From Candidatus Poribacteria bacterium (GTDB taxonomy: Bacteria > Poribacteria > WGA-4E > JAJDTR01), in NCBI GenBank assembly GCA_965222225.1, contig CBDCTK010000002.1, positions 1,344,001 through 1,408,000 of the forward strand: 64,000 bases of DNA, read 5' to 3'. Positions 1 to 5,105 of the stretch are shown piece by piece. Each line of letters starts with the position of its first letter. The stretch's first letter is position 1. A program made the translations under genes and the position numbers. The notes under the pieces were generated by a model. That model ran no database searches. It worked only from the letters and a program-made list of their open reading frames with translations, and had not been told where the DNA came from.

Positions 1-382
1 TTAGTGCGCTCGCGATGTGCCTCATGCCGCAATTTTAGACTAGCACTACCGATTTCGTCAATGCGAATTTGAAATGGTTGGCAGGAACATTAGATCCGCG
101 TAGAGATTTTCTTGGCACGAGACACATTAAACCTCTTCTGTTAGCGATAATCTTTGTACAGGGTTGAATGTCTAAGGTTCGAATCTTGCGCGTTGGACAC
201 TTTATGCGCGCTGTAGTAAATCTCAACGCTGATAGCCAGATCCAAATGTTCGTGAGATGTTCTAATTTTAATGTAGACATCACGGTGTCTAATGGAGTAT
301 CATGGGAGCTTAGAAATAGATGATAAATTCCCTAGACCTATAATCTTGGAACGAAGGCAAGACGTACCGAACAAGAACAACT

Positions 383-1489
383 ATGGAGCACAAACCTACC
401 ATAACTCGACTACCTAGATTACTTTTGATAGGCATAGCCTTAATCACTCTCGCAACGGCTGAACTGTTCGTTGGAAAACTATTTGCGAAGACAACCAAAG
501 CCAGTCCGTCCAGTCAGAATCTCCTACCTTCGCAGTCCGAATATAAGGCTCTCCTTGAGCGTTTCTATGACGCGGTTTTCAACCTCCCGAATCTAATCGA
601 AGCCCGAAATCTTGTAGGTACTGACTACATCGATCACAACCCCATAAATCCCAAATCGGTATCTGGAATTGATGGGCTAAAATACACCTCGAAACTGTTT
701 CGAACCGGTTTCCCGGACATTAACATTCGCGTCGAAGATTTGATCATTGGTCGGAATAGAATAGTAGCTCGTATCAGAATACGGGGAACGCATCAGGGCG
801 AATTCATGGGAATCAAGCCTACCGGCAAGCAGATTGACATTGCGGCAATTGAAATTTACAGAATCGTTGGCGAGAAAATCAGTGAACGATGGGGAAATTT
901 GGATGGTATCGCGCTCCTTCAGCAATTGGACGTGGTTCAAATACAGAACGCGCCAGACGACGCCCTATCCGGGGATGGCGAAGAACTTGCCGAAGAGGAA
1001 CAGCAAAGCAAGGTCATTGAAAACCGGAATTTGACAGCCCTGAACGATTGGGAGCAACTTAAAGCCGCTTTCATGCACGAGATTGGACGTGTGCGCATTG
1101 TGGCGCTCCTGTCGCCAAACTGACCGCTATGTCGTCGGGGGGTCTCCGAAATTAAGAGAATCCTTAACAATTCTTCAGACGACTATCCGGCTGTCTATGT
1201 TGTCTGGCAACCCGTCCTTCGCAGTGACAACCGCGAGGCTGCAGAAAGACGTGCGGATGAGTTTGCCGACGATAGGATTCGTCACTTCTGGGACAAAGAG
1301 CGATTCACCGGAGAATTGTGGAAGCCCGTCCTTGGCGCGCGGGATATTCCCTGGGACGTTTATTTCTTGTATAACCCAGATGCCCAATGGGAGGACGTTC
1401 CCACGCCTCCAGATTTTTGGATGCGTCGAATGACCGAAGGAAAAATCCCGCGATTTTTGACAAAAGTAAGGGAAATCATAGGCAAATAA
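383..1489 (+). CDS. Putative selenoprotein: N-terminal signal/TM segment + SnoaL-like ester cyclase domain + C-terminal thioredoxin-fold domain with U-x-x-C motif (Sec at TGA 1121-1123); 368 aa if read through
   Basis: SnoaL motifs (GFPDINIRVEDLI, GTHQGEFMGIKPTGK, KISERW). The track ORF ends at TGA after RIVALLSPN, but the same frame continues PLCRRGVSEI...VYVVWQPVL...HFWD...WDVYFLY...PPDFWM to TAA at 1487-1489. Confidence 0.8.
1135..1149 (+). promoter_or_regulatory. Bacterial SECIS-like hairpin
   Basis: TCGGGG-GGT-CTCCGA stem-loop starts 11 nt after the TGA and has GGUC at its apex, as in the E. coli fdhF SECIS. Confidence 0.6.
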
Positions 1490-2696: not shown

Positions 2697-5105
2697 TTAC
2701 TTAGAAATCAACATTTTGCGCGTAGCAGCAAAATCGTTGGTTTTCAGAGTATAGTAGTAGACACCTGATGCGACATGCTCGCCAGCACCGTTGCGCCCAT
2801 CCCAATACGCGGCGTTGGAGCGTGTCATGTAGAAGCCAGCCGGTTTCATTCCCAGATCGAGTGTACGTACAAGCTGACCGGACGCACTATAAATCTGAAT
2901 GGAAGCGAAACTAGACTCGCTGAGTTGGAACGGCATCCACGTCTCGGGATTGAACGGATTGGGGAAGTTTTGTGCCAGTCGCGTTTGCTCTGGATGCACA
3001 TCACCAACCACTAGTGACAGACGCAGGTAAGCCTGCCTGATGTCCGCAATATCAACCGTGTGCGTGAACGGACCTGATACGATATTTCCGCTGCCATCAA
3101 GCACCGTGATTTCCAGCTGATCGCCAGCCTCTATGACACTATTCCGATTGAGATCTGCCCAGACAGCAGCGGAGCGTGTCTTGCTCGTTGAGATTGGCTC
3201 GGTTGCAACTGCACCGGTGCGCAGGTTCTTGGCTACCAAAGTGTAGTTCGTTTGTGGATCGGCATTTTGCAAACTACCACTTACAACAAATGCCCACGCA
3301 TCCCTGAAGGGGTTGATACCCGGCGCTGCGGCGACTTGCTGGTTGTCCCACGCGGTTCCTGTGAAGGCAACGGAACCGCCATCGGGTGTGTTGACGATGT
3401 AGCCTTTGCCGCCTTCGATAGCAAACCCATCACCGCCTTCACCTGTCGTGAAGCCGACAAATTTCTGACTCGCCGCGTCAAGTTTAATGACGACGGTAGC
3501 GCCTACTGCCTCTGCAAACGTTTGGGCTGTGAACGGCGCTTCCGGCATCAGCGGCAGAGAAATCATGTTCAGCCCTTCATCAAGCATCATGGCGAAGGTC
3601 GCCATCTCTTCCTCGGGCGGGGCAACATACGGTGCGACGCTCAATCGAGCAACCGGCTCCATCCAGCCGAATTCCATGCCAACATCAGCGTTACCCGTGA
3701 TACCCGGGTGTGCCATGATAACGCCACCTTCGACAGCTTGCTCACTCCCGCCGAACGGAGGACCAGGAACATGCGTGGCAAGTTCGTTATTCTCTTCCGT
3801 GCCAGCATCATACGTCATGATGTCCATGGTAAAGGTGCGCGGCGCTCCAGCTTCGTCAAAAAGCGAGAGGCTATTACCAGCAACAAGCGCATCATTCGTT
3901 TGGACTAGCATAGAAGCAAACGAAAGCAGCCATCCATCCATGCCTCCATCAATCATTACACTAGTAGATGCGCCTGGAAGCAACACACCTTCAGCAGACT
4001 GAACATCTTTGACCCCTTCTGTGCCCATAGCGAGGGCGGAAAGCGGTGCATTATCGCCCATTTCGGCGATATCACGCAATTCCTCGGAGGCAGCCGTACC
4101 AGCTTCAACAAAACTTACACTGCTGGTATGGGTGATGAACAGTGCTGGGGAGAAAATCTGTCCGCTTTCCGTGGGAGTGCCGACAGTGAGGTTTTCGAGC
4201 GTTACCGTAAAGGTCTGGTCGGCTTCAATTGGTGGGGCTGCGGCAGATTCTTCGGTGGGCATTTCGTCAATCAGCGTTTCATCGACTGGTGTCTCATCGA
4301 CTGGTGTCTCATCGACTGGTGTCTCATCGACTGGTGTCTCATCGACTGGTGTCTCATCGACTGGTGTCTCATCGACTGGTGTCTCATCGACTGGTGTCTC
4401 GTCAACCGGTGTTTCATCGACTAGAGTCTCATCAACTGGTGTTTCGTCAACCGGCGTTTCATCGACTGGAGTCTCGTCAACCGGTGTTTCATCGACTAGA
4501 GTCTCATCAACCGGTGTTTCGTCGACTAGAGTCTCATCAACTGGTGTTTCGTCAACCGGTGCTGCTGGAGCGGAGACCATGCCGTCTGTTGTTGTTACGG
4601 CTAGAAGTGTCTGTAAAGAAGCGTCAGCAGGATCCGGAATTTGCACCTTCGCGATTTGCAGCGATGAATCTTTAGCCTCAACTACTTCGAATGTTATGGT
4701 TACCAGCGTACCCATATCTCCACCCTCTCCGGCGAGAGAAAGTGATGCCATACGGATGGTAGCAAGGCCGGTGTCGGGATTCGTCTCGATTTCATCGGCA
4801 TTTGGCGGAACAGGAAATGCGCCGGGTAGATAATCGCTGAATTCCACTCCAACATACGAAAGCGCAGTTGGATCAAATAGCACATCAAACTGATAAGCTT
4901 TGATACCCGCGGCGGCGCTAATGTTGACATCAACAGTAAGTTGTTCGCCCGCCGCTGGGGATTCAATTGCTGCCGGATCGATTGAAAGAACCGCTTCACC
5001 GTACGTTGTGCCCTGAAGAGCAAACAACATCATAAAAACGGTGACAAAAGAGAATAACGACCCTCGGTTAACTATCTGGCTCTTCATCAAAAATACACCT
5101 TTCAT
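2697..5105 (-). CDS. Secreted modular protein: cohesin domain, acidic VDETP tandem linker, spondin_N-like domain, FlgD-Ig/T9SS-type C-terminal domain
   Basis: Signal peptide; YQFDVLFDPTALSY...GTLVTITFEV (cohesin); FSPALFITH...SMLVQTNDA...YDAGTEEN (spondin_N); NFPNPFNPETW...YWDGRN...ASGVYYY. Confidence 0.8.
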   Translation of the reverse strand: MKGVFLMKSQIVNRGSLFSFVTVFMMLFALQGTTYGEAVLSIDPAAIESPAAGEQLTVDVNISAAAGIKAYQFDVLFDPTALSYVGVEFSDYLPGAFPVPPNADEIETNPDTGLATIRMASLSLAGEGGDMGTLVTITFEVVEAKDSSLQIAKVQIPDPADASLQTLLAVTTTDGMVSAPAAPVDETPVDETLVDETPVDETLVDETPVDETPVDETPVDETPVDETLVDETPVDETPVDETPVDETPVDETPVDETPVDETPVDETPVDETPVDETLIDEMPTEESAAAPPIEADQTFTVTLENLTVGTPTESGQIFSPALFITHTSSVSFVEAGTAASEELRDIAEMGDNAPLSALAMGTEGVKDVQSAEGVLLPGASTSVMIDGGMDGWLLSFASMLVQTNDALVAGNSLSLFDEAGAPRTFTMDIMTYDAGTEENNELATHVPGPPFGGSEQAVEGGVIMAHPGITGNADVGMEFGWMEPVARLSVAPYVAPPEEEMATFAMMLDEGLNMISLPLMPEAPFTAQTFAEAVGATVVIKLDAASQKFVGFTTGEGGDGFAIEGGKGYIVNTPDGGSVAFTGTAWDNQQVAAAPGINPFRDAWAFVVSGSLQNADPQTNYTLVAKNLRTGAVATEPISTSKTRSAAVWADLNRNSVIEAGDQLEITVLDGSGNIVSGPFTHTVDIADIRQAYLRLSLVVGDVHPEQTRLAQNFPNPFNPETWMPFQLSESSFASIQIYSASGQLVRTLDLGMKPAGFYMTRSNAAYWDGRNGAGEHVASGVYYYTLKTNDFAATRKMLISK
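4257..4556 (-). repeat. Coding 15-bp tandem repeat, 19 x VDET[P/L] plus one degenerate IDEMP
   Basis: Unit GTCGATGAGACACCA; contiguous and in frame. Confidence 0.95.

Follow-up and report, generated by a model that had tools for sequence, protein, structure and literature searches.

A predicted selenoprotein of Candidatus Poribacteria joins a SnoaL-like domain to a UxxC thioredoxin-fold domain through an in-frame UGA

Table 1 of the bacterial selenoprotein inventory PMC13188914 lists 119 families and subfamilies, mostly of the thioredoxin-fold type with a UxxC motif, where U is selenocysteine (Sec). The UxxC families in that table include Trx, Grx, Prx-like thiol:disulfide oxidoreductase, and thiol:disulfide interchange protein, together with DsbA-like form 1, the redoxin family, and thiol-disulfide isomerase-like proteins; most of them are exported or predicted redox proteins. 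Here we describe a candidate of this general kind in Candidatus Poribacteria. The DNA that we analysed (the window) is a stretch of 64,000 nucleotides of contig CBDCTK010000002.1, assembly GCA_965222225.1. Judged from the sequence, positions 383-1489 of the window are very probably one gene for a predicted 368-residue selenoprotein of a Candidatus Poribacteria sponge symbiont, in which a SnoaL-like domain is followed by a UxxC thioredoxin-fold domain—the part past the in-frame TGA is called the tail below.

Like the UxxC selenoproteins of Table 1 in PMC13188914, the predicted protein has its UxxC after a beta strand, has homologues with Cys, and carries a candidate selenocysteine insertion sequence (SECIS) directly past the UGA. 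Unlike the families of that table, it matches none of their testable identifiers (PF00085, PF00462, PF00578, PF13098, PF01323, PF08534, and the NF models). The words 'SnoaL', 'cyclase', and 'NTF2' have 0 occurrences in the main text that accompanies the 119 families and subfamilies, SnoaL is not mentioned in the main text of the BSepDB paper (PMC13326102), and our literature search returned no paper that pairs SnoaL with a selenoprotein; the combination of SnoaL with a Sec thioredoxin-fold domain was thus not found in the papers searched. The tail family cannot be recognised among the entries of the PMC13188914 inventory and may be known under a generic name. Against the main text and Table 1 of that inventory, what appears new here is a UxxC domain family outside the testable identifiers and its fusion to SnoaL; the UxxC thioredoxin-fold kind itself is well known.

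On the + strand, an open reading frame (ORF) at 383..1123 encodes 246 residues and ends at TGA 1121-1123. Read through this codon, the frame stays open for 121 further codons to TAA 1487-1489, which gives a full coding sequence of 383..1489 with 368 residues and Sec as residue 247, in the context RIVALLSPN-U-PLCRRG. An earlier note on this DNA, which had proposed a hidden selenoprotein, described the same ORF, the same TGA, and the same 121 open codons, and the ORF list and the read-through translation confirm that description. The note's statement that the tail has no separate start is upheld as well: the first ATG, GTG, or TTG in frame past the TGA is TTG 1316, 64 codons on, so the first 64 codons of the tail (1124-1315) have no start of their own.

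Public gene calls treat the locus differently. A database search with the read-through protein, in which the 8000 candidates sharing most words were scored, gave 34 relatives and no full-length form among them; 32 of the 34 are proteins of 242-273 residues that cover 67% of the query, i.e., the part before the TGA, and the two that bear a name are both 'ester cyclase [Candidatus Poribacteria bacterium]'. The tails are recorded separately, as 11 unnamed fragments of 91-131 residues. Standard gene callers had been expected to miss the gene, and these records show that they do. They also fit an alternative in which the TGA is an ordinary stop—the product would then be a 246-residue 'ester cyclase' and the tail a nonsense relic or a separate small gene—and so does the unexceptional energy of the hairpin that follows the codon.

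We followed the gene in three overlapping, non-independent sets of orthologues (18 full-length proteins, 27 GTDB loci, and 33 genomes). A search of 40 relatives and the source genome gave the 18 full-length matches, which are 38-81% identical to the window protein over full length; each has exactly one internal TGA, and U falls in the same column in 18/18. The window's genus and its sister genus share the motif SPN-U-PLC; a genus of another family has SPG-U-PKC. The true stop codon differs among the same 18 orthologues, being TAA, TAG, or TGA. Among 176 genomes searched in the phylum, 33 from five genera carry the gene, and the TGA is kept in 33/33: 32 are full length with one TGA, and one is split between two frames. 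A further 13 of the 176 genomes match the SnoaL part only, and a Cys form of the SnoaL fusion was found in none of the 176. The scan of GTDB contigs gave 27 loci with TGA in 27/27; the titles of 26 name Candidatus or uncultured Poribacteria. In the split orthologue (G059:C1:942998-943999, - strand), overlapping frames hold a SnoaL part at 8-194 and a tail part at 209-368 that includes the TGA; either a frameshift or a fault of assembly could explain the split.

The tail evolves as a coding sequence. In the two genera compared, the ratio of nonsynonymous to synonymous substitution rates (dN/dS, Nei-Gojobori) past the TGA amounts to 0.140 (45 pairs) and 0.153 (21 pairs), and the SnoaL domain has 0.151 and 0.125. 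The closeness of these values indicates that the tail is translated and under the same constraint as the part upstream, and 43 residues of the tail are invariant in the ortholog alignment. Beyond the orthologues, a tail-domain profile run against 1.84 billion representatives matched 1692 proteins at E <= 0.001, 779 of them at E <= 1e-10; the residue and domain counts given from here on refer to the best 150 of the 1692. CxxC stands at the U column in 110 of these 150, and a further 31 are short proteins that start just past the U column (profile positions 27-50), the signature of Sec forms cut by gene callers. The remaining nine comprise one other fragment, DxxS in three, WxxS in two, WxxC in two, and SxxS in one.

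The earlier note had named three observations that would tell against a selenoprotein: a tail without conserved homologues, Trp, Arg, or another non-Cys residue at the TGA column, and a genome without Sec machinery. The tail is instead conserved under purifying selection (dN/dS 0.14-0.15), and the homologues mostly carry Cys, in the 110 of 150 just given and as TGC or TGT in 23 of 77 metagenome loci described below; the machinery, as we show further on, is present. A TGA that is kept in five genera while the true stop varies, a constrained tail without a start before its codon 64, Cys at the TGA column in homologues, and a beta strand that precedes the active site from upstream of the TGA leave an ordinary stop scarcely credible. 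A systematic annotation error is thereby corrected: a gene conserved in five Poribacteria genera has entered the records in two pieces, a truncated 'ester cyclase' and an orphan fragment.

The element that would direct recoding lies immediately downstream. A SECIS-type hairpin at 1135..1149 begins 11 nucleotides (nt) past the UGA, with 6 bp (UCGGGG/CUCCGA) between arms 1135-1140 and 1144-1149 and a GGU loop at 1141-1143; the earlier note had already described a hairpin at this distance, and the apex reads G-GGU-C. The E. coli fdhF-type bacterial SECIS is the natural comparison: like it and the bSECIS model, the hairpin starts 11 nt past the UGA and has a small apical loop with G and then G/U; unlike them, it has just 6 bp and -6.6 kcal/mol, and no lower stem is seen in Poribacteria. 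The bSECIS criteria as given in PMC13188914 are a loop of 3-9 nt, 4-16 bp in the upper stem, G at the first two positions of the loop, a UGA-to-loop distance of 16-37 nt, and a minimum free energy (MFE) of <= -7.5 kcal/mol. In geometry the hairpin agrees with them (loop 3 nt, stem 6 bp, G at the loop start, 17 nt from UGA to loop). The selD gene of the source genome has a like layout: its hairpin, too, begins 11 nt past the UGA and closes a G-rich loop of 3 nt with a 6-bp stem, and its lower stem is longer (-20.8 kcal/mol over 70 nt).

It is conservation, and not folding energy, that sets the hairpin above chance. Synonymous sites over it are frozen: of the 58 amino-acid-invariant degenerate columns in the 18 orthologues, all but five show more than one codon, and four of these five single-codon columns lie over the hairpin (R251 CGT, R252 CGG, G253 GGG, and S255 TCC; hypergeometric P 5.8e-5). 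The wider family gives a second comparison. We scanned metagenomes with an alignment (A5) that combined nine Sec-form tails with two full-length Cys forms, all 11 taken from search hits, and obtained 80 loci (not de-duplicated), of which 77 are readable at the critical column: TGA in 54, TGC in 13, and TGT in 10. Sec forms thus outnumber Cys forms, 54 to 23, in one scan whose query was mostly Sec-form tails. Scoring seven pairs—the window's 6 bp and one extra G-C pair—we found all seven intact in 53/54 TGA forms vs 0/23 Cys forms; the Cys loci keep six pairs in one case, five in eleven, four in three, three in six, and two in two. When 61 Sec-form segments (55 distinct rows) were aligned, pairing held in 95.6% of cells, vs 27-71% with the partner slid; pair 16-28 is C-G in 50 distinct rows, U-A in five, and never unpaired, and the covariation score of the hairpin was reached by 0/500 shuffles. 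A hairpin kept in Sec forms and lost in Cys forms is a clean SECIS case, useful for training selenoprotein finders.

Contigs from RNA libraries agree with the DNA at this codon. Those from four runs in two studies bridge 1121-1123, and no other letter is listed there; contig depth and the uncovered part at 200-350 were not used as evidence, and the contigs show neither transcript ends nor expression level. In runs X15-X18, separate contigs with much higher depth figures (147-741) match the window only at 1120-1152, the 33 nt that hold the TGA and the hairpin; beyond this stretch, as we read their loose ends against the orthologues, they continue as sequence resembling the other genus's orthologue. 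The extent of this match shows how far nucleotide-level conservation of the SECIS stretch reaches.

Several observations weigh against this reading of the codon and hairpin. The energy of -6.6 kcal/mol is unexceptional (z +0.30), with 118/200 shuffles folding at least as well, and the 71-nt window around the hairpin folds with z = -0.05. On the bSECIS energy criterion of <= -7.5 kcal/mol the hairpin is borderline: taken alone it falls short, and with a second mini-stem included the 40-nt MFE is -8.1 kcal/mol. Rfam reported nothing at gathering score across the whole window, and over 1080-1240 at E <= 10 it gave two chance-level matches alone. The compensatory U-A rows are confined to one subgroup (CRWGFSN), so that the pair change may have arisen only once. 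Within Poribacteria, the hairpin hardly varies (one loop change) and therefore shows no covariation there. RNA-library contigs may hold DNA and cannot show translation. The one loop change is found in an orthologue of the sister genus (L025 / L050), whose stop is TGA and whose loop reads GGC for GGU (Val to Ala), so that the U of the loop can vary.

The source genome (G000; 5.70 Mb, 94.87% complete) has the machinery that recoding requires. A tRNA-Sec scores 76 bits, with anticodon TCA in ARAGORN; SelA is found at E 3.2e-157; and a SelB wing domain directly adjoins selA and the tRNA-Sec gene (selC). The three form a cluster at G000:C2:1590469-1593758 (+) (L001, L009, L010), ~245 kb downstream of the window's start. 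The selD gene, at G000:C2:2933348-2934274 (-) (L011), is itself a selenoprotein gene with one in-frame TGA in the context ECAG-U-ASK. These genes bear on a further alternative, in which the UGA is read through as something other than Sec, by a near-cognate Cys or Trp tRNA or under a variant genetic code. Trp does occupy the column in four of the best 150 relatives (WxxC in two and WxxS in two), and low-selenium conditions can favour UGA misreading. Yet selA, selB, selC, and selD are all present; under table 11, the reading frames of SelA, of the SelB region, and of other long ORFs are free of internal stops; the hairpin is intact in nearly all TGA forms and in none of the Cys forms; and the aligned residue in most homologues is Cys. 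We therefore rate non-Sec readthrough as very unlikely and regard SelB-type recoding of UGA 1121-1123 through the adjacent hairpin as strongly supported.

The same grade applies to the architecture of the product: two domains, of which the second has a thioredoxin-fold UxxC centre, U247-P-L-C250, where helix 1 begins. The UGA at 1121..1123 encodes the first position of U-P-L-C, an assignment that rests on the orthologue column and on Cys in homologues, and the Cys250 codon at 1130..1132, the predicted resolving partner in UxxC, is invariant in alignments A1, A2, and A4. The N-terminus runs from basic residues to a hydrophobic helix (residues 12-26, 416..460) and then A-T-A; the helix is modelled at a low predicted local distance difference test score (pLDDT) and has a Kyte-Doolittle maximum of 2.18 over 15 residues. 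From its sequence, this segment is predicted to be a signal peptide or a membrane anchor. The SnoaL-like (NTF2-fold) domain, residues 57-182 at 551..928, is followed by an acidic disordered linker (residues 186-214, 938..1024; pLDDT <50; dN/dS 0.51 in the window's genus), and a TlpA-like thioredoxin-fold domain of an unnamed family fills residues 216-368 (1028..1486), as assigned by predicted structure, Foldseek, and profile search. This order—signal or transmembrane segment, SnoaL domain, disordered linker, Sec thioredoxin-fold domain—is the one that had been proposed for the gene, and the Pfam match and the structure models uphold it.

The SnoaL assignment is firm: PF07366 matches at 111 bits (cut-off 28.4; E 4.5e-32), and no other gene in the source genome carries this domain. 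Foldseek matches of the domain include TsrD (E 2.3e-10), AclR, IdmH, and SnoaL, with target-normalised template-modelling (TM) scores of up to 0.88. A separate search gave AclR at E 7.5e-13, and AclR, IdmH, TsrD, and SnoaL2/SnoaL are the closest relatives with solved structures. The domain thus resembles the family of SnoaL, AknH, AclR, SnoaL2, IdmH, and TsrD, and shares GTHxGxFxGxxPTGK and ERW motifs with AclR and IdmH. Unlike these proteins, the window protein has a predicted export segment before the domain and a predicted Sec redox domain after it, and no polyketide cluster surrounds the gene.

The tail domain has no Pfam or NCBIfam match at E <= 1, and its fold is seen from structure. A model built from 65 sequences reaches pLDDT 93 and a predicted TM score (pTM) of 0.89; it places a strand at 16-21, U25, and a helix at 26-41, so that U sits where strand 1 gives way to helix 1. 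In the model, this strand-U-helix arrangement is the active-site geometry of thioredoxin, and the strand before the redox motif lies upstream of the TGA, as the earlier note had it. The best PDB matches by Foldseek are the membrane-anchored thioredoxin of S. pneumoniae (4evm, E 2.1e-5), SPOA0173, GPx7/8, DsbF, CcmG, DsbE, ResA, Etrx1/2, DipZ-C, SCO1, and ScoI; query-normalised TM scores are 0.55-0.67, with E values of 2e-5 to 1e-3. A sequence-profile search of the PDB with the tail gave a sole hint, DsbA-like 3gyk (E 0.0022), which extends across the motif.

The tail shares with reductases of the TlpA/ResA/CcmG/DsbE/Etrx type a thioredoxin fold that is extended at its N-terminus and carries an inserted helix-strand, an xxC motif at the start of helix 1, and a membrane-anchored or exported location (here predicted). 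It differs from them in having Sec for the first Cys, Ala at the usual cis-proline position in most of the tail family, and motifs of its own; none of their Pfam or NCBIfam models matches even at E <= 1, and PF08534, PF00578, PF13098, PF01323, and PF00085 are equally without a match at that threshold. At the position of the usual cis-proline, by an equivalence that is inferred and not aligned, the window's genus and its sister genus have Pro, and the other genus and most of the family have Ala. Among curated NCBIfam selenoprotein families, NF049942 (DF), NF045500 (GOS_C), NF040730 (SaoT), NF047660 (HUIPC), and NF045683 (MerT/CopZ) give no match to the tail at E <= 1. We considered the 'DF family (seleno)protein' model NF049942 as a name for the tail family and rejected it: it matches seven of the best 150 relatives and leaves the window protein unmatched, and in the four of the seven that were examined it marks a small thioredoxin-type domain of its own, C-terminal to the shared one.

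That the C-terminal domain belongs to a large unnamed family, mostly of signal-peptide or lipoprotein type and with CxxC or UxxC, is strongly supported. The family motifs are LSPxU/CPxC, VWxP, WD, AWDVYxLY, and PxFWMHQL. The relatives that bear a name are 'hypothetical protein' entries from Acidobacteriota, Pyrinomonadaceae, and Blastocatellia, with two entries called 'protein-disulfide isomerase'; none of these named relatives has a Pfam domain, and none is called a selenoprotein. Of 100 full-coverage relatives (Cys-form) with an extension of >= 25 residues, 76 have an N-terminal hydrophobic segment. Thioredoxin_3 is the only Pfam thioredoxin-type model among the best 150, in three proteins, and in P0005 it covers another part of the chain; at E <= 0.01, NCBIfam gives no match for ten Cys forms or for the Sec-form tails P0007, P0013, P0029, and P0047. 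An atlas search with the Cys-form P0002 returned unnamed clusters first and then TlpA/AhpC-TSA clusters at 0.88. A SnoaL domain occurs in 0 of the best 150; the SnoaL fusion was seen in Poribacteria alone, and always in its Sec form. We therefore have a candidate new thioredoxin-fold family with Cys and Sec forms and without a Pfam or NCBIfam model. Two or three copies of the tail-type domain are found in P0005, P0008, and P0009.

Hints to function come from the relatives. MerTP_fusion is found in 15, HMA in 14, and MerT in five of the best 150, and fusions to MerT, HMA/MerP-like, or NF049942 domains are seen in P0017, P0039, P0040, P0043, P0051, P0076, and P0099. The metagenome relatives (L070-L149, e.g., L072:1378-2285) are single-domain proteins of ~200 residues, Sec or Cys, with signal or lipobox-like N-termini. 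Their neighbours were grouped by ORF clustering, with two representatives for each neighbour family (one for VOC). A MerR-family regulator of heavy-metal type lies directly upstream on the same strand in 46/80 loci and scores best on the MerR, ZntR, and CueR models, below their cut-offs; a CopZ_Nterm_CC gene ('putative iron-sulfur cluster-binding metallochaperone'; 126 bits vs a cut-off of 100) lies directly upstream in 46/80; and a VOC/glyoxalase gene lies downstream in 23/80. By these ties of the tail family to MerR/CopZ/MerT-MerP systems, a metal-linked role is a serious alternative, and they offer a testable link of selenocysteine to soft-metal stress in the cell envelope. The resemblance to Hg/Cu proteins (MerP/HMA, the MerT/CopZ fusion-like NF045683, the UxxU family NF041115, and SCO1) lies in relatives that are fused to or stand beside such domains; unlike these proteins, the tail domain does not match their models, and the Poribacteria gene has no such neighbours.

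How the protein would act can be proposed in outline. With chances that we see as evenly balanced, the protein would lie outside the cytoplasm, where its selenolate would attack a disulfide or a soft electrophile, Cys250 would resolve the adduct as a selenenylsulfide, and a DsbD-type membrane reductase would restore the reduced form. The location is suggested by the hydrophobic N-terminus, the signal-bearing relatives, and the TlpA-type fold; for re-reduction, a DsbD_TM gene is present in the genome. By analogy with the gene context of the relatives, the chemistry may serve soft-metal (Hg/Cu) stress or keep metal-binding thiols reduced. That the SnoaL pocket holds a small hydrophobic substrate or recruits a target is a doubtful addition. 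The earlier note had further suggested that a hydrophobic or halogenated ligand could be coupled to the Sec chemistry and that incomplete readthrough might yield two proteoforms.

A different function can be put forward for the same selenoprotein: the Sec-Cys pair would be mainly a binding and hand-over site for soft metals (Hg(II), Cu(I)), like those of MerP, CopZ, and SCO, and not a catalytic disulfide reductase, which would make the Poribacteria fusion a periplasmic trap for metal or organometal. The fusions to MerT and HMA/MerP-type domains, the MerR and CopZ_Nterm_CC genes, the structural matches to SCO1 and ScoI, and Ala at the usual cis-proline position in most of the family are consistent with such a site, and Table 1 of PMC13188914 contains several predicted metal-handling selenoproteins. 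The best structural matches of the tail, however, are reductases (4evm, ResA, CcmG, DsbE/F), and the Poribacteria gene has no adjoining metal gene. SCO proteins, moreover, have a CxxxC plus His metal site, from which UxxC differs, and in TlpA-type systems the reductase serves metal sites and is itself not metal-binding, so that the metal context does not separate the two roles. We hold a metal-binding site to be possible on these grounds, if on the whole unlikely.

Three observations count against our main reading in turn. The full-length AlphaFold model has a pTM of 0.45, and the relative placement of the domains is not fixed; we drew nothing from this model about a shared SnoaL/Sec active site. 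Ala at the cis-proline position is unusual for a disulfide reductase. As for function, no neighbours are conserved between the two Poribacteria families, and no metal or redox gene is among them. The most far-reaching combination of these ideas seems to us improbable as a whole: a new periplasmic selenoenzyme whose SnoaL pocket would capture a hydrophobic sponge-derived or organometal(loid) compound, such as a halogenated metabolite or an organomercurial, and present it to Sec247-Cys250 for reductive detoxification, with the single-domain LSPxUPxC proteins of soil Acidobacteriota as an unrecognised, widespread selenoprotein family of MerR/CopZ metal-stress operons.

Around the gene itself, a promoter-like site (TAGACA, 18 nt, TATCAT; 10/12 matches) lies at 274..303 on the + strand, ~80 nt 5' of the start codon; it is a consensus match alone, and with eight such sites across the region vs 2.2 expected it is weak evidence. 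Within the window's family, synteny extends to UppP/BacA, a cohesin/FlgD_ig protein, and two VOC genes, the last lying just upstream of the window gene on the opposite strand. The cohesin/FlgD_ig protein, kept downstream of the selenoprotein gene within this family, is encoded at 2697-5105 (-) of the window and has 802 residues, with cohesin, a long run of PVDET-type repeats, Spondin_N, and a C-terminal FlgD_ig. In the other Poribacteria family, the neighbours are a sulfatase, a type ISP restriction enzyme, a spermine-synthase-like protein, PCMT, and an M3 peptidase, which give no clue to the function of the selenoprotein.

Elsewhere in the source genome, a crude scan for TGA codons flanked by open frame, at a distance of three residues from a Cys and followed 9-13 nt on by a hairpin, gave 83 entries, most of them probably chance. 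Five on G000:C2, at 3818855 (+), 512176 (-), 1448624 (-), 1558597 (-), and 3007471 (-), have thioredoxin-like contexts (W-U-PLC, W-U-PFC, W-U-GKC, G-U-PAC, and CGA-U) and could be further unannotated selenoproteins. An identical TGA context, FWCGV-U-IVQDD, with a 9-bp hairpin, recurs at eight places on G000:C2 (e.g., 948383, 1054412, 1697479, and 3935788) and looks like a mobile element rather than a selenoprotein.

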